From an uncultured Gammaproteobacteria bacterium (GTDB lineage Bacteria > Patescibacteriota > Microgenomatia > Woykebacterales > RBG-16-39-9b), in assembly GCA_965231125.1 (NCBI GenBank), contig OZ246414.1, forward strand, positions 384,137-448,136: a stretch of DNA of 64,000 nt, read 5' to 3'. Below are positions 30,941 to 36,877 of this stretch, piece after piece. A program made the translations under genes and the position numbers. The notes under the pieces were generated by a model, which saw only the letters and a program-made list of their open reading frames with translations, ran no database searches and had not been told where the DNA came from. Position 1 is the first letter of the stretch, and each line of letters opens with the position of its first letter.

Positions 30941-32506
30941 CTAATCACTCTCTTTGGGAACTGGAATGAATTTGTAGTAATCTTTATAATTTGAGAAGTA
31001 AGATTTATCTTCCAACATTTTGAATTTCGTTCCAAAGTAATAATTAAACATTTTTCTAAATGTATTAACCGGAGTAATCGTGGGGTAAAGGATTTTTCCC
31101 CCACCCTTTGGAAGATAATAAAGGTTTAAGTTAGAGATTCTCTCGTATATTTGCTGATCGGTTAACTTATCAAGTGGGGTTAACCATTGTCTTTGCGAAG
31201 CTGTTCCTTCGTCTGACTGAATAATTATTATCGGTGGAGTTTTAGATCTTGCTAAAATAGAATTAACCATATCTTCCACTTTATTATTTACAAAGATAAC
31301 TTGCTCTACATATTCTTTCCGCTGATTAAAACGCCCCTCATCGTCAGCTAAGCCCTTACTGTACGCGACCAGTTTATTACCATAACGATCAAATAGATAA
31401 GGATGATGGGGTGATACTATGTGAGCAAACGTAAATGTGGGTCTAGAGTCTTTTGGAATCTCTTTTAATTTATCAAATGCGTAAAGTATTGAATCCGCTG
31501 CGTCAAACTTGAATCTTTCAAATAAGGTAAGTGCGCTAGTTTGATAAAGTAGTCTCATAAATTCACTTCTTTGGCCGAGTACGTATAGCTCATCGGCATA
31601 TGGATTATCCGCTGTACCGCCCCAGAATGTACCAATTGCTATGTAAGTGTAACCCCTCGATTTAAGAAATTTAGAAACAGCGCTGTTTCTTATCATTTTG
31701 TAAGAAATCTTAAATTTTTCTCTCTGGCTCACCTGTTTTTTAGAAAGATCGTCCAGGTATGTCATATTTAAAGATGAACTAAGATTTAGCAAGGTTATAG
31801 AGTAATTACTTTTACTATTATCAACTACGTAAAAACCTTTTTTTGCCATATCACCCAAAAACTTATTGTTATCGTAATGGTATAAGCTTTTTAAAAAAGC
31901 AGCTCCTGCATAATCTTCCAAGATAATGTAGTAGATATCGGGTGAATTTTTACCTCTTTGCCCTCTAACACTTAAAGTTTTATTTTTTGAGTTTTTTTCA
32001 GACACATTAAGTCCATTTTTTAAAGCAAAGGTTCCTATCGTGTAAAGAGAACTTAGTATCAATAAAACTACAATAATATTTAAGATCTTTGATAAACTTT
32101 TCAAGTTAGCTTTTGTTTTCCAAATGAGAAATGAAAGAATTAAAAACAAAATTAGGTACGCCGGAGCAAGGAATTTATGACGAGTTAGTAGATGTCCTTG
32201 CATTCTAACTTCTGGTAAAAGATTGAATATGTGGCCATACGAAAAGAAGAAAATAAGGCTAGCGGAGGTTATTAAAGCTGCTTTTTGCGTGTCTTTAAGG
32301 GTAAATTTTAATGTGAAAAGGATGAAAATTGTGACTCCGAGGGAAATTAGAATTGGTGAAAAAGTTTCCGACAGATAAGATTCGTTAAGATTTATGCTAT
32401 AAATAAAGAGAATTGGGTAAATCGCAAAAAGGAAGGGGTAAAGTGGAAGTGAAAGCTTAACTTTTCTTAGCGCGCCAATTCCTAGGCTTTTCCTAAAGTT
32501 TGTCAT
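30941..32506 (-). CDS. LtaS-like / sulfatase-superfamily membrane protein (polyol-phosphate or phosphoglycerol transferase-like)
   Basis: Five N-terminal TM helices are followed by an extracytoplasmic alkaline-phosphatase-superfamily domain (PDIYYIILEDY..., ...IIQSDEGTA). Confidence 0.5.
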   Translation of the reverse strand: MTNFRKSLGIGALRKVKLSLPLYPFLFAIYPILFIYSINLNESYLSETFSPILISLGVTIFILFTLKFTLKDTQKAALITSASLIFFFSYGHIFNLLPEVRMQGHLLTRHKFLAPAYLILFLILSFLIWKTKANLKSLSKILNIIVVLLILSSLYTIGTFALKNGLNVSEKNSKNKTLSVRGQRGKNSPDIYYIILEDYAGAAFLKSLYHYDNNKFLGDMAKKGFYVVDNSKSNYSITLLNLSSSLNMTYLDDLSKKQVSQREKFKISYKMIRNSAVSKFLKSRGYTYIAIGTFWGGTADNPYADELYVLGQRSEFMRLLYQTSALTLFERFKFDAADSILYAFDKLKEIPKDSRPTFTFAHIVSPHHPYLFDRYGNKLVAYSKGLADDEGRFNQRKEYVEQVIFVNNKVEDMVNSILARSKTPPIIIIQSDEGTASQRQWLTPLDKLTDQQIYERISNLNLYYLPKGGGKILYPTITPVNTFRKMFNYYFGTKFKMLEDKSYFSNYKDYYKFIPVPKESD

Positions 32507-33885
32507 TTTTTAACCATTAAGTATAAAAGCCGCTTACTATTTTTTATATCTGACTTAATCTTCACTAAGAAGAACTTACCAAATTCTGTCTCAAAATCTT
32601 TTTCTGTGTAGTTAGGGAAAATATCTCTCCTAGTTGAAAGGAGTTTTTGGACTTGAGAGTCTTCTTTGGGTACAAATTCAATTATGAGGCTGTTACAGAA
32701 TTTACTGAAGAAACTGGCAAGTTCAGATAAAGGAACGTTATTTGAAATTGCTAGGTGATGGATCAAAGCCAGCGCAAGACCTAGGTCGGTTGGTCCTCTC
32801 TGCAGGAATGCTTCTCTTTCTTCGTTTTCCCAACCAATGGCTGGGCTTGGATTTGTTAGGTCGATTAAAAGAGGAAGTATGTATTTTTCCTTTCTTTTTA
32901 CCATCTCTTTGTAATTTAATTCTATTGCTGCCGGGTCTATATCAAAAGAAATTGTCGAGACCCCTTTATCGGAAGCAATACGACTGAATAATCCAGTGTT
33001 CCCACCAAAATCCCATACAGTTTTTGGATTTGTTTTTCCCAAAAATTCTTCCACCAGTTTTGCTTTATAACGCAATGAGTCTGTTAAGTAGTTATTGTTT
33101 GACGGATAATAATCTGCCCATTCTGTCCCTTTGGACTGCCAATTTAAAGATTTTATTGCGCCTTCAAGATTATCGATTAAGCCTAAAAACGATCTTTTAT
33201 TCATTCTTCCTTTTATTGAGTCTTTTTTTATCGTTTTATCTGAATACTTTTTTTGACTTGCTGCATGTAAATGAATATGAATAAATAAAGAAGGTTTAAA
33301 TTTAGTTCTTATGGGCAGCAATTTAGAGGCCAGGTCTAAAGGGATACCATCAATGTATAATTGAAACAAACTGCTAAGACGAATATCAGTATAAACCATC
33401 AAAGAAAGTGGAGCTAAAAAATGCTGGCAAAATTGTTTATACGCAACCCAAGGTTCCCCTTCTTTATATTTTTCAAATGAGAGAGTGTCAATTAAGATGG
33501 GTTTTCCCTCAAGAAATTGAATATTAAAAGCACTCGCATCTTTTAAGATCATTCCATGCTCAAGTGCAATTTTTTGTATCCTTAAGGTTGTGAGGGCCGC
33601 GTCCTTAAACTGGCCAAAGCACCATTCGTAAGGGTAAGAGATAAAAGGGACTCTTTCAGGCCTAATAATCTTATAAGCGTTTTTATTTGGTGAAGTCGAT
33701 TTTTCGACTTCTTTGTGGGGAATCAAAAGGCCCAAATCTACTAGTTTTTTATAAAGACCAGCCTTTATCAGATGCTCGTAATTTTCTCTGTAACTTTCAT
33801 TGATTTGCCGAAAAAGTGTTCCACGCGAAGCGAAGACAAAGCCAGATGGATCGCGAAAAGAGGCCTCCAGCTTATTTACTGTCAT
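32503..33885 (-). CDS. Two-domain protein with a C-terminal class I SAM-dependent methyltransferase fold
   Basis: The C-terminal region contains VWDFGGNTGLFSRIA (motif I) and an acidic motif II. The N-terminal ~270 aa are unassigned. Confidence 0.45.
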   Translation of the reverse strand: MTVNKLEASFRDPSGFVFASRGTLFRQINESYRENYEHLIKAGLYKKLVDLGLLIPHKEVEKSTSPNKNAYKIIRPERVPFISYPYEWCFGQFKDAALTTLRIQKIALEHGMILKDASAFNIQFLEGKPILIDTLSFEKYKEGEPWVAYKQFCQHFLAPLSLMVYTDIRLSSLFQLYIDGIPLDLASKLLPIRTKFKPSLFIHIHLHAASQKKYSDKTIKKDSIKGRMNKRSFLGLIDNLEGAIKSLNWQSKGTEWADYYPSNNNYLTDSLRYKAKLVEEFLGKTNPKTVWDFGGNTGLFSRIASDKGVSTISFDIDPAAIELNYKEMVKRKEKYILPLLIDLTNPSPAIGWENEEREAFLQRGPTDLGLALALIHHLAISNNVPLSELASFFSKFCNSLIIEFVPKEDSQVQKLLSTRRDIFPNYTEKDFETEFGKFFLVKIKSDIKNSKRLLYLMVKK

Positions 33886-34171
33886 CTATCTTGGGGGAAG
33901 AGGCAGGGTTTACTTTTTTATTCTTCTTAGAAAAAAGGTTGCTGAAGAAATTTTTTATTTGCAGCCAAAAAGACTTCACCGTAAAGAGAGCTCCAACTAC
34001 ACCAGCAATAAAAAACTGTAACATATAGCTTCCACTACCGGGGTCTAGGTATGCATAGACGGGTTTTGCAGGGAGGAACAAAAAAAGTACTAACAACAAA
34101 AAAAGATTTGTTTTTGATTTCATTTTGAAAAAGCTTAAAGACATTATATCTAATGTTCGATTTTTTGTCAA
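33872..34171 (-). CDS. Small secreted/membrane protein, hypothetical
   Basis: The 99-aa ORF has a signal-like N-terminus and one TM helix. It overlaps the start of the downstream gene. Confidence 0.35.
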   Translation of the reverse strand: MTKNRTLDIMSLSFFKMKSKTNLFLLLVLFLFLPAKPVYAYLDPGSGSYMLQFFIAGVVGALFTVKSFWLQIKNFFSNLFSKKNKKVNPASSPKIDDSK

Positions 34172-34180
34172 TCAAAGTTG

Positions 34181-35287
34181 TTAATCAACAATAACTTCCC
34201 AAGGAAAGCCTTCTCTTCCAAAATGTCCGTAAGAGGCTGTTTGTTTGTAAATGGGGCGAAGCAAATCTAGCCCTTTAATAATCCCAGGCACCGATAAATC
34301 CAACAAATTCCAAGCGAGATCTTTGATCACATTTAATGACTTCTTTTCTGTACCAAATGTGTCAACATCCTTTGCTATTGGTCGCTTATGACCAATGACA
34401 TAAGCAAGTTGCACTTCGGCTTTATCTGCTAAACCAGCAGCAACTATGTTTTTAGCAAGGAACCGGGCCGCATAAGCCCCACTTCTGTCAACTTTAGTTG
34501 GATCCTTGCCAGAAAACGCACCTCCACCGGCTCTAGAGAAGGCCCCATAAGAGTCAACAATTATTTTTCGGCCAGTAACACCAGTATCCGAGGAAGGGCC
34601 TGGTGTCGTCCAAACACCGGCCCCATTGACTATCAGAAGCCCCTTTTTTAAGTTAAAGCCGAACTTCTCAAGCACGGGTTTTACTACATACTTAAACAAA
34701 TCTTCCTTAAGCTGTCTATTATCTATTTTTTCGTCATGGGCTGCCGCTAAGACAACTCTTTCAACACTTTTCGGCTTCCCATTTTCATACAATACTGAAA
34801 CTTCACTTTTTCCGTCCGGTCGCAAATATGGGATTATTTTTTGCTCACGAACCTGATCGAGCTTTTCAGTCAACCGATGAGCTATTGAAATGGGTAACGG
34901 CATAAAGTTCTTTGTTTCATTCGTTGCATACCCAAACATCATGCCTTGATCGCCTGCTCCTCCAGAATCAACTCCTAAAGAAATTTCTGGTGATTGCCTG
35001 TGAATTAGAATTGTAATAGGGGATTTATAAGAAAAATTAAACCTACCATTGGTATAGCCTAGTTCTTTTATTACCGAACTCGCAATCTTATTAAATTTAA
35101 GGTTTGCATTCGTAGTTACTTCTCCTGCCAAAACAACCTTGTTAGTAGTTACTAAAGTCTCAACAGCCACACGGCTTTTTGGGTCGTTTTCTAAAGCCGC
35201 ATCAACAACAGCATCGGAAATTTGGTCACAAATCTTATCTGGATGGCCGGCCGCAACTGATTCAGAAGTGAAAATTTTATAGTTCAT
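34181..35287 (-). CDS. metK: S-adenosylmethionine synthetase (methionine adenosyltransferase)
   Basis: MNYKIFTSESVAAGHPDKICDQISDAVVDA is the canonical MetK N-terminus. The GGGAFSGKD motif is present. Confidence 0.95.
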   Translation of the reverse strand: MNYKIFTSESVAAGHPDKICDQISDAVVDAALENDPKSRVAVETLVTTNKVVLAGEVTTNANLKFNKIASSVIKELGYTNGRFNFSYKSPITILIHRQSPEISLGVDSGGAGDQGMMFGYATNETKNFMPLPISIAHRLTEKLDQVREQKIIPYLRPDGKSEVSVLYENGKPKSVERVVLAAAHDEKIDNRQLKEDLFKYVVKPVLEKFGFNLKKGLLIVNGAGVWTTPGPSSDTGVTGRKIIVDSYGAFSRAGGGAFSGKDPTKVDRSGAYAARFLAKNIVAAGLADKAEVQLAYVIGHKRPIAKDVDTFGTEKKSLNVIKDLAWNLLDLSVPGIIKGLDLLRPIYKQTASYGHFGREGFPWEVIVD

Positions 35288-35299
35288 TATTTTAGATTT

Positions 35300-35429
35300 A
35301 AAAAACTCTCGCTAAGGAGAGTTTAATTGGATTATCTGGTTAACAGATCATATCCTCCGATGTCGGAGTAAGCACCCAACTCCTTAGGGTTGCTGCTCGG
35401 TACAATATCCCAAGCTCTTGATACGTTTC
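35300..35429 (-). ncRNA. SAM riboswitch (S-box/SAM-I-like, reduced P2) with an intrinsic-terminator expression platform in the metK leader
   Basis: On the minus-strand RNA the leader reads GUAUCAAGAG...CAGCAACC...GGUGCUUACUCC...GGAGGAUAUGAUC. These are S-box-like conserved blocks: AUCAAGAG, GCAACC, GGUGCUnAnUCC, and a P1 closure GUAUC/GAUAU. The terminator AACUCUC-CUUAGC-GAGAGUU followed by U6 ends 25 nt before the ATG. GGAGG can pair with CUCC as an antiterminator. A TTGACA-17 nt-AATAAT promoter lies at 35431-35459. Confidence 0.55.
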
Positions 35430-35527
35430 AATTATTAAACAGTCAGCCAAAATTGTCAATCATTATGATTGCTCAAGATCTTGAGTTAATGCATTATTTT
35501 GATATAATAAACACTCAAAATTAGAAA

Positions 35528-36877
35528 ATGATGCAAAATTTAAAGAAAAAAATAAAAGATAGATCAGCCAAAATTTCTGTGATTGGACTTGGTTACGTTG
35601 GGCTTCCGGTTGCTTGTTTGCTAGCCAAAGTAGGTTTTAAAGTTATTGGAGTTGATCTTGATAAAAAAAAGGTAGATTCGATAAATAAAGGCATTTCGCC
35701 TTTGGACACCGTTGAAAAAGGTATCGGTCGACTAGTCAGCGAAGCAGTGAAAAAGGGTGGTCTAAAAGCCGCGGCCACTTACCAGCTGGTTAAAGAAAGT
35801 GGCGTGGTAATTATATGCGTTGATACACCGGTTGATGAAAGGACGCGCGTTCCAACCTACAAGTCCTTAAAAGCCGCGTTAACATCAGTTGGTGAAAATC
35901 TAAAGGAAGGCTGCCTTGTTATCGTCGAGTCCACAATTGCACCGGGAACAACAACAAACCTAGTTGTCCCATTTTTAGAAAAATCTTCAAAAATGAAAGT
36001 AAATAAAGACTTTTACGTTGGCCACTGCCCGGAAAGATTAAAACCAAACAGAATCTTGCTTCAACTGGAAAACTACCCTCGAGTAATTGGTGGGTTAACC
36101 GAAGAAACAGGGCAGGTAATGAGGCAACTTTATAAAACGATTGTTAAAGGACAACTGGATGTTGTGGACCCTCTCACCGCCGAAGTCATTAAAACAGAGG
36201 AAAATTCTTTTGGTGACACTCTTATTGCTCAGGCTAACGCTCTTGCTCTACTTTGCCAAAGTTACGGAGTGGATGTTAACCAAGTGATAAAATCTATCCG
36301 AAAAATCCCTGGTTATTGGGGTTCGTATTTGAATCCAGGTCCGGGTGTTGGTGGCCACTGTTTTCCTAAAGATCCGTATTTAAAAATTGCTCAATTACCA
36401 AAGGGAAAAGGTCTTCCAGAGGCTAAAAAACTTGTTTCCGATTTTGTTCGCTTGACTCGAGAAATAAACGATTATATGCCGGCAAATGTTGCTTACCTAT
36501 TAAATGAAGCTTTAAAAGAAGCCAAAATAGAGGCTAAAAAGGCCAAAGTGGCTATTTTGGGCTATTCTTACAAAGAGAATACTGATGATTCAAGAAACTC
36601 TCCAACTCAGTCTCTTACAGAAGAACTCAAAGGTAAAATTGGGGAGATCAGAATCCAGGATCCGTTCATAAACGAGTTTAATTCTAACCTTAGGGAGACT
36701 CTAAAAGGCGCCGATGCACTAGTTTTAATGGCGTCACACACGCCTTACGAAAAACTGACGTTTGATTATCTGAAGAAAACAATGAACAGGCCGATTATCG
36801 TAGACGGCAGGAATTTCTTTTCAAGGGACGAAGCTACCAAAAAAGGTTTTATCTATAAGGGGGTTGGGAATGTTTAA
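35528..36877 (+). CDS. UDP-sugar 6-dehydrogenase (nucleotide-sugar dehydrogenase family; WbpA/WecC-like UDP-GlcNAc/ManNAc dehydrogenase)
   Basis: [30 protein letters not shown] is the N-terminal NAD-binding region. The catalytic Cys region is [13 protein letters not shown]. The protein is 449 aa. Confidence 0.85.

Follow-up and report, generated by a model that had tools for sequence, protein, structure and literature searches.

The leader of metK, the S-adenosylmethionine (SAM) synthetase gene encoded in a 64,000-nt window of contig OZ246414.1 (assembly GCA_965231125.1), raises the question of which kind of SAM riboswitch it carries, and of the strands through which such an element could control the gene. 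The original prediction for this locus had proposed an S-box-like riboswitch with a reduced P2 and a terminator/antiterminator platform, and regarded it as a novel minimal S-box variant. The first part of this proposal holds: the alignment to the Rfam SAM-I model (RF00162), the predicted fold and the leaders of related metK genes all support a SAM-I-clan riboswitch and, judged from its sequence, the leader carries a SAM-sensing element of the SAM clan, which we infer to bind SAM. The claim of novelty has to be given up, because the reduced P2 is a published hallmark of the SAM-I/IV class and the fold matches the crystal structure of that class (PDB 4L81). The most probable reading is a riboswitch of SAM-I/IV architecture that acts as a SAM-dependent transcriptional OFF switch, with an antiterminator based on the loop of P3 (L3). 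Coordinates below are positions in the window unless given for an L-numbered locus, and the metK promoter, leader and gene all lie on its minus strand, with the regulated gene (368 aa) at 34181..35287 and its ATG at 35287.

The minimum free energy (MFE) and centroid folds, the RF00162 alignment, RNAalifold and the topology of 4L81 agree on an aptamer core with a four-way junction at 35349..35425 (minus strand, as for all elements of the leader). The junction is closed by P1, formed by CGUAUC (35425-35420) and GAUAUG (35354-35349), as the original prediction had it. A 4-nt J1/2 (AAGA) leads into P2 (35395..35415), a plain hairpin, GCUUGG-GAUAUUGUA-CCGAGC, with 6 perfect base pairs and, as had also been noted, neither internal loop nor kink-turn. 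P3 (35371..35394), previously drawn as CAACC/GUUGG, two strands that are not antiparallel-complementary, consists instead of AGCA, a bulged A and CCC paired with GGG-UGCU; it holds the SAM-pocket blocks GCAACC...GGUGC, is nearly invariant in the 10 leaders compared below, and is capped by L3, UAAGGAGUU (35386-35378). J3/4 comprises only 2 nt (UA) and is followed by P4 (CUCCG-ACAU-CGGAG, 35355..35368), a hairpin inside the junction, as in SAM-I and 4L81, with 0 nt between it and P1. Two further elements, overlooked in the original prediction, lie between P1 and the terminator: the P5 hairpin (AUCUG-UUAAC-CAGAU, 35334..35348), which sits directly 3' of P1, is part of the MFE structure and is typical of SAM-I/IV, and the tail AAUCC(AA) (35327..35333), of which AAUCC occupies 35333-35329.

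The conserved blocks of the core, AUCAAGAG, GCAACC/GGUGC with its bulged A, and GAU, are all present in this leader, and the blocks CAGCAACC and GGUGCUUACUCC, which the original prediction had singled out, are both found in it. The AUC/GAU pairs of P1, AAGAG, GCAAC with the bulged A and GGUGC are presumably the contacts of the ligand pocket. Folding of the 81-nt aptamer yields the four-way junction as MFE structure (z = -4.2), and none of 200 shuffled sequences folds as well, while the MFE structure of the full leader (z = -3.7) comprises the aptamer, then the P5 hairpin and then the terminator.

Covariance-model searches place the RNA in the SAM clan but below the curated cut-offs. Scanned in full at Rfam gathering thresholds, the 64-kb window returned no match to any family, tRNA and rRNA included. 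In a local scan of 361 nt ranked by E-value, the only meaningful match was to RF00162 (26.2 bits, where gathering requires 44.4; E = 8e-4). This match runs end to end over 35347-35427 with UAUCAAGAG, GCAACCC, GGUGC and GAUA conserved, and deletes only P4 and the distal P2, where 6 nt are aligned to the 15 of the kink-turn region of the model. By itself, such an S-box-like match below threshold would be ambiguous. The SAM-I/IV model (RF01725, 'SAM-I-IV-variant') had no match in the window either at gathering (41.1 bits) or at E <= 10, and none to the SAM-IV model (RF00634) was reported in the local scan. The RF00162 alignment attributes the low score to peripheral helices that are deleted or inserted around an unchanged core, and the gathering score itself is a curated cut-off, not a structural feature. 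Four related metK leaders do exceed the RF01725 gathering score, with 50.3 (L195), 47.8 (L198), 45.7 (L169) and 41.6 bits (L162), and in the four-way leader L162 the model handles P4 as an insertion in J3/1; L168, L179, L181, L184 and L001 gave no Rfam match at E <= 0.1. The covariance-model check suggested with the original prediction thus had a mixed outcome, with no gathering-level match in the window itself but with a partial RF00162 match, and, because the leaders of close relatives pass RF01725, the missing window match does not in substance count against a SAM riboswitch.

These relatives were obtained by fetching the DNA upstream of MetK homologues, and the L-numbers denote the resulting loci, many of which are identical copies (L169-L178 and L185-L194). 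The nearest named homologues in a protein search are those of Candidatus Woykebacteria and other Patescibacteria (CPR), at 66-80% identity. Scans of genome and metagenome contigs with MetK peptides gave at least 600 matches, only one of which (L001) was useful; among the matches listed, most were from Bacillota, Acidobacteriota and similar groups, at about 50% identity. Eight further distinct leaders share the architecture of the window leader (L162, L163, L168, L179, L181, L184, L205 and L207), three have a three-way junction (L169, L195 and L198), and L001 is more distant. The arrangement of promoter and aptamer recurs 5' of metK in the relatives. A MAFFT alignment of the raw leaders misplaced their 5' half, because P2 varies in length (19 to about 70 nt), and was replaced by a model-based alignment. 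A covariance model, R1, was built from the nine four-way leaders, window included, with a 50-nt P2 insertion of L168 trimmed for model building only, and the untrimmed sequences were then aligned to it (alignment A3).

Across the 10 leaders of A3, standard pairs fill 89.5% of cells as against 77.4% in shuffles, and 16 pairs show changes on both sides; none of 500 shuffles reaches the observed values, and controls with slid alignments fall to 39-52% paired. A3 still has some residues of P2 and P4 out of register, and these pairing counts are therefore understated. Compensatory changes are seen in all six pairs of P2 and all four of P5, which is paired in every sequence, in two of four pairs of P4 (86.5% of cells paired), in two of five pairs of P1 and in one of the seven pairs of the nearly invariant P3. 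RNAalifold recovers the same five helices from A3, an alignment that is itself already fitted to the R1 structure. The SAM-I-type core blocks (AUC/GAU of P1, AAGAG of J1/2 and GCAACC...GGUGC) are invariant or nearly so in all 10 leaders, and L3 of L162 (UAAGGAGCA) is almost identical to that of the window. A search with R1 matched the window once and recovered no additional member from the 160 metK loci of other phyla; it scored the RF01725-positive leaders L169 and L195 at 47.1 and 43.4 bits, and its other matches, at loci with mostly Bacillota contig titles, at 33.4 bits or less.

In L168 (1065-1134), an insertion of about 50 nt extends P2 to about 70 nt and leaves the rest of the aptamer unchanged. 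A further SAM-clan element, at L185:765-935, has a kink-turn-like P2 (GGAGA...GAUGA), an internal P4, an external hairpin and a terminator, AAAACUCUCCUUUGGAGAGUUUUUU, and scores 33.2 bits against RF00162, short of the gathering cut-off. The element precedes not metK itself but small unannotated ORFs of 71-107 aa that lie upstream of metK, in a locus that was fetched with the MetK protein P0096, named Candidatus Gottesmanbacteria by one source.

The conservation of core and helices bears on the possibility that the window RNA is a degenerate or re-specialised relic of the SAM clan that no longer binds SAM and serves as a constitutive structure or as the sensor of another ligand. That the window copy falls under all Rfam gathering scores is what such a relic might show. 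Its low score, however, stems from the peripheral helices and not from the core, the consensus SAM-I pocket blocks (AUC/GAU, AAGAG, GCAAC with the bulged A, GGUGC) are in place, all helices have been kept by compensatory changes across diverged relatives, and metK is the gene context throughout. A relic is hence highly improbable.

The class of the element follows from its architecture. SAM-I/IV riboswitches are characterized by a plain P2, without kink-turn and without a P2-loop pseudoknot (Weinberg 2010, PMC2864571 additional file 1; PMC6890682). In their crystal structure, 4L81 (env87; sequence printed in PMC5393176), P1 encloses a plain P2, a P3 that contains a bulged A, and a P4 (5 bp, 4-nt loop) that abuts P1; J1/2 measures 4 nt and J3/4 2 nt, and 3' of P1 lie P5 and a tail, the end of which forms the pseudoknot PK-2 with the P3 loop. 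The bracket pattern of the window RNA reproduces this fold element for element. Like RF01725 and 4L81, it combines a SAM-I-type core with a plain P2 that lacks an internal loop and the pseudoknot PK-1; its J1/2 (4 nt), J3/4 (2 nt) and P4 (5 bp with a 4-nt loop abutting P1) have the dimensions of the crystal structure; P5 directly follows P1, as does the <<<<____>>>> element of RF01725 and P5 of 4L81; the tail starts with AA; and L3 is complementary to a downstream strand. There are also differences. The window copy falls short of the RF01725 gathering score, and the RF01725 consensus has no P4, so that the P4 of the window counts as an insertion. The tail of that consensus reads 'Aaggagu', whereas the polarity is reversed in the window, where the purine strand UAAGGAG lies in L3 and the pyrimidine strand in the tail and terminator. 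The best partner of L3 lies 14 nt after P5, inside the terminator, instead of 2-6 nt after it, and the host belongs to a Patescibacteria (Woykebacteria-like) lineage.

The other two classes of the clan fit less well. With SAM-I (S-box, RF00162), the RNA shares the P1-P4 four-way junction, the AUCAAGAG, GCAACC, GGUGC and GAU blocks, and the combination of a metK leader with a terminator as expression platform, but it has neither the kink-turn nor the P2a/P2b division, and it possesses an additional P5 and a conserved tail. PK-1 is not possible in this RNA because J3/4 is only 2 nt long. With SAM-IV (RF00634), known from cryo-electron microscopy (PMC6890682), it shares the SAM-I-like core and the hairpin on the 3' side of P1, and potentially a PK-2 between L3 and the 3' tail, which is a SAM-IV feature; SAM-IV, however, lacks P4 and possesses PK-1 together with a P2a/P2b internal loop (PMC6890682), whereas in the window RNA P2 is plain, PK-1 is absent and P4 covaries. 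An assignment to SAM-IV was therefore rejected on the presence of P4 and absence of PK-1, and a new minimal S-box class was rejected because the architecture equals that of SAM-I/IV. By its predicted fold, the window RNA is a divergent, lineage-specific SAM-I/IV-type member from a Woykebacteria-like lineage of the Patescibacteria.

The aptamer is followed by an intrinsic terminator at 35300..35324, as originally predicted, which is present in the MFE fold as an 8-bp hairpin (-8.2 kcal/mol). Its arms are AAACUCUC (35324-35317) and GAGAGUUU (35310-35303), separated by the loop CUUAGC (35316-35311) and followed by UUU; the U-run spans 35305-35300, and the terminator, U-run included, ends 12 nt before the metK ATG, not 25 nt as had been stated. 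The stretch CUCCUUAGC reaches 35311, the end of the terminator loop. A consensus terminator scan of the region returned no site despite the 8-bp hairpin and the U residues, probably due to the A/U-extended stem absorbing part of the U-run; as a side observation, this miss at 35300-35324 indicates that A/T-rich terminators in the window genome will be under-called.

Part of the terminator is complementary to L3. Its segment CUCCUUAG (35319-35312) can pair with CUAAGGAG (35387-35380), a stretch made up of the last C of the P3b 5' strand and L3. Within it, UAAGGAG of L3 and CUCCUUA form a perfect 7-bp complement with a predicted energy of -9.0 kcal/mol, as compared with -9.4 for PK-2 of 4L81, and only a fraction of 0.004-0.008 of shuffled sequences reaches this energy. 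The segment CUCUCCUUA of the terminator 5' arm and loop is invariant in the window, L181 and L184, the three leaders with a terminator, although the bases of the stem differ. The tail contributes a second half-helix, as AUCCAA can pair with UUGGGU (35379-35374).

From these computed complementarities and predicted energies, we infer the direction of the switch and the strand that serves as antiterminator. With SAM bound, P1 and P3 would be locked and L3 would stay within the folded aptamer, where it most probably forms a short PK-2 with the AAUCC tail, and the AAACUCUC/GAGAGUUU hairpin with its U-run would terminate transcription 12 nt before the metK ATG. With SAM absent, CUAAGGAG-UUGGGU, that is L3 and the 3' strand of P3, would pair with AUCCAA...CUCCUUAG, that is the tail and the 5' arm and loop of the terminator. 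This long-range helix would break P3 and remove the three G-C pairs of the terminator stem, and with the terminator disrupted RNA polymerase would read through into metK. When the transcript is folded up to the terminator loop, the long-range helix is the MFE structure (-33.4 kcal/mol), as compared with about -33.7 kcal/mol for aptamer and P5, a value obtained by subtracting the terminator (-8.2) from the full-length MFE (-41.9); on these values, the two states have almost equal energies. In L181, too, this long-range helix is the MFE structure at the decision point.

The original prediction had placed the antiterminator elsewhere. In the SAM-I clan, the 3' strand of P1 is the usual switching strand, and S-box leaders of the SAM-I class are established to use an antiterminator formed by the 3' strands of P1 and P4. 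The same SAM-I/IV aptamer could accordingly work as an OFF switch through a classical antiterminator, in which CGGAGGAU (35359-35352, the 3' strand of P4 and P1) pairs with UCUCC of the terminator arm in the absence of SAM. The proposed pairing of GGAGG, located at 35358-35354, can indeed form, with 5 bp and a duplex energy of -7.1 kcal/mol, and in L181 and L184 the 3' arm of P4 (GGGGAGA and UUAAGG) is likewise complementary to the 5' arm or loop of the terminator. It is nevertheless weaker than the L3-based helix (-11.2 kcal/mol as a duplex): the forced structure reaches -29.5 kcal/mol as against -33.7, a deficit of 4 kcal/mol, and is not the decision-point MFE in the window, in L181 or in L184. 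The classical design also leaves unexplained the conservation of CUUA in the terminator loop and of the AAUCCAA tail, and we regard it as unlikely here.

The resemblance between the 7-bp L3/CUCCUUA pairing and the PK-2 of 4L81 (ACGGAC/GUCCGU) permits yet another arrangement, in which this pairing is the bound-state PK-2 and SAM, by sequestering the 5' arm of the terminator, raises transcription of metK. The two pairings resemble each other in length and energy, and both occupy nearly the whole loop, while the alternative GGA/UCC pairing of L3 with the tail has only 3 bp. Such an ON switch would, however, require a linker of 14 nt after P5, where 4L81, L169 and L195 have 2-6 nt. Moreover, the L3/CUCCUUA pairing, extended by UUGGGU/AUCCAA, is the MFE structure already without ligand and, since the extended pairing is favoured in that state, the terminator would never be used. 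To our knowledge, positive feedback of SAM on its own synthetase would also contradict the logic of all metK SAM riboswitches described. The sister leaders, in which the tail lies over the start codon, imply repression by SAM and argue in the same direction, so that an ON switch appears very improbable.

Those sister leaders provide a comparative argument for repression. In L162 (1101-1203), L168 (1053-1203), L179 (1080-1203), L205 (1092-1203) and L207 (1085-1203), the tail AAUCC (AAACC in L205) is followed by 1-3 nt and then by the AUG, with no terminator. The best partner of L3 in these leaders is the tail, with energies between -3.3 and -6.0 kcal/mol and a helix that reaches 6 bp in L207, which suggests that the folded aptamer occludes the start region and acts on translation initiation; because the tail adjoins the start codon, SAM-dependent repression of metK fits these leaders. 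The tail is AAUCC in eight of nine close relatives and AAACC in the ninth. The helix between L3 and tail is longer in L179, L205 and L207 than in the window, and its pairs differ among relatives (CACAG/CUGUG in L169, UACACA/UGUGUA in L195, UUAGGG/UCCUAA in L207); a search for L3-to-tail duplexes in L001, L185 and L198 was uninformative because of long structured P3 extensions. For the three terminator leaders (window, L181 and L184), this comparison raises the tentative possibility of a pseudoknot swap, whereby L3 docks on AAUCC in the presence of SAM and is captured, along with the 3' strand of P3, by AUCCAA...CUCCUUAG in its absence. We know of no expression platform of this kind in the SAM-I clan, and consider the complete swap somewhat doubtful.

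Several observations weigh against the OFF switch with an L3-based antiterminator. The window copy lies below every Rfam gathering score. Its candidate for a bound-state PK-2, GGA of L3 with UCC of the tail, amounts to only 3 bp, and these core pairs, which can form in 8-9 of the 10 sequences, are conserved and show no covariation. The decision-point MFE of L184 differs, with AGAG of J1/2 pairing with CUCU. The full-length MFE favours aptamer and terminator by about 8 kcal/mol without ligand, and the switch would therefore have to be kinetic. Only three leaders are of the terminator type, and since L3 and CUCUCCUUA are shared among them by descent, the pairing between L3 and terminator draws no support from covariation. 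Lastly, if 4L81 is taken as a guide, PK-2 could be the 7-bp L3/CUCCUUA pairing itself, and SAM would then oppose termination.

Knowledge of SAM recognition and of riboswitch evolution is left unchanged by this locus, because the plain-P2 architecture with P4, P5 and PK-2 has already been solved (4L81); the window copy is a new, Rfam-subthreshold member of a class that is known and structurally characterized. The one aspect that is possibly new is the L3-based antiterminator, proposed from three related sequences and energy predictions. The practical significance lies in annotation. The metK riboswitch of this Patescibacteria (CPR) genome escapes Rfam at curated thresholds, as does a set of related leaders from Woykebacteria-like and other Patescibacteria, and a lineage-specific model such as R1 would improve regulatory annotation in these reduced genomes. 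In addition, sister lineages appear to use one aptamer type with two expression platforms, in which either the start codon directly follows the tail or a terminator is appended, and thereby allow translational and transcriptional control to be compared in a compact natural setting.

The promoter of the leader was correctly identified in the original prediction. It is of the sigma-70 type (35431..35459), with TTGACA at 35459-35454, a 17-nt spacer and AATAAT at 35436-35431, matches the consensus at 11 of 12 positions and is the top-scoring site of the region in a promoter scan. Its -10 element ends 5 nt upstream of P1, and TTGACA-17/18-(A/G)ATAAT is found 6-14 nt 5' of P1 in eight of the nine four-way leaders, window included. 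Because this position is conserved, the leader transcript probably begins just 5' of P1. The gene is identified as metK by the three S-AdoMet synthetase Pfam domains of its product (E-values of 1e-36 to 1e-57).

No Shine-Dalgarno (SD) sequence lies upstream of the metK start, in agreement with the near absence noted in the original prediction, but the significance then attached to it was rejected, given the low genome-wide use of SD. Among the 38 ATG-initiated ORFs of at least 200 aa in the window (1-64000), only 11 have even a loose SD match (AGGA, GGAG, GAGG or AAGG, 5-20 nt upstream), and SD use across the window genome looks low. L3 itself reads as a perfect SD (UAAGGAG, 35378-35386), and its partner CUCCUUA (35313-35319) is identical to the canonical 3' end of bacterial 16S rRNA. 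In an organism that rarely uses SD, this may be fortuitous or may point to contact with the ribosome. TATAAT-like boxes occur no more than about 20 nt from the ATG of several genes (e.g. at 35528, 52262 and 55309), which suggests very short leaders at these genes. One divergent, promoter-like site on the plus strand, at 35481-35508, combines TTGAGT-16-TATAAT and an upstream TG; the ATG of a gene of the UDP-glucose/GDP-mannose dehydrogenase family follows 20 nt later, at 35528.

On the metK strand (minus, 30941-35287 region), the gene is followed by a 99-aa ORF without a Pfam match and by a 460-aa protein, which matches Methyltransf_23 weakly and below the Pfam cut-off and whose end is overlapped by 4 nt by a 521-aa ORF. 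The metK gene and these downstream ORFs may form an operon that places a SAM-dependent methyltransferase under the same riboswitch.

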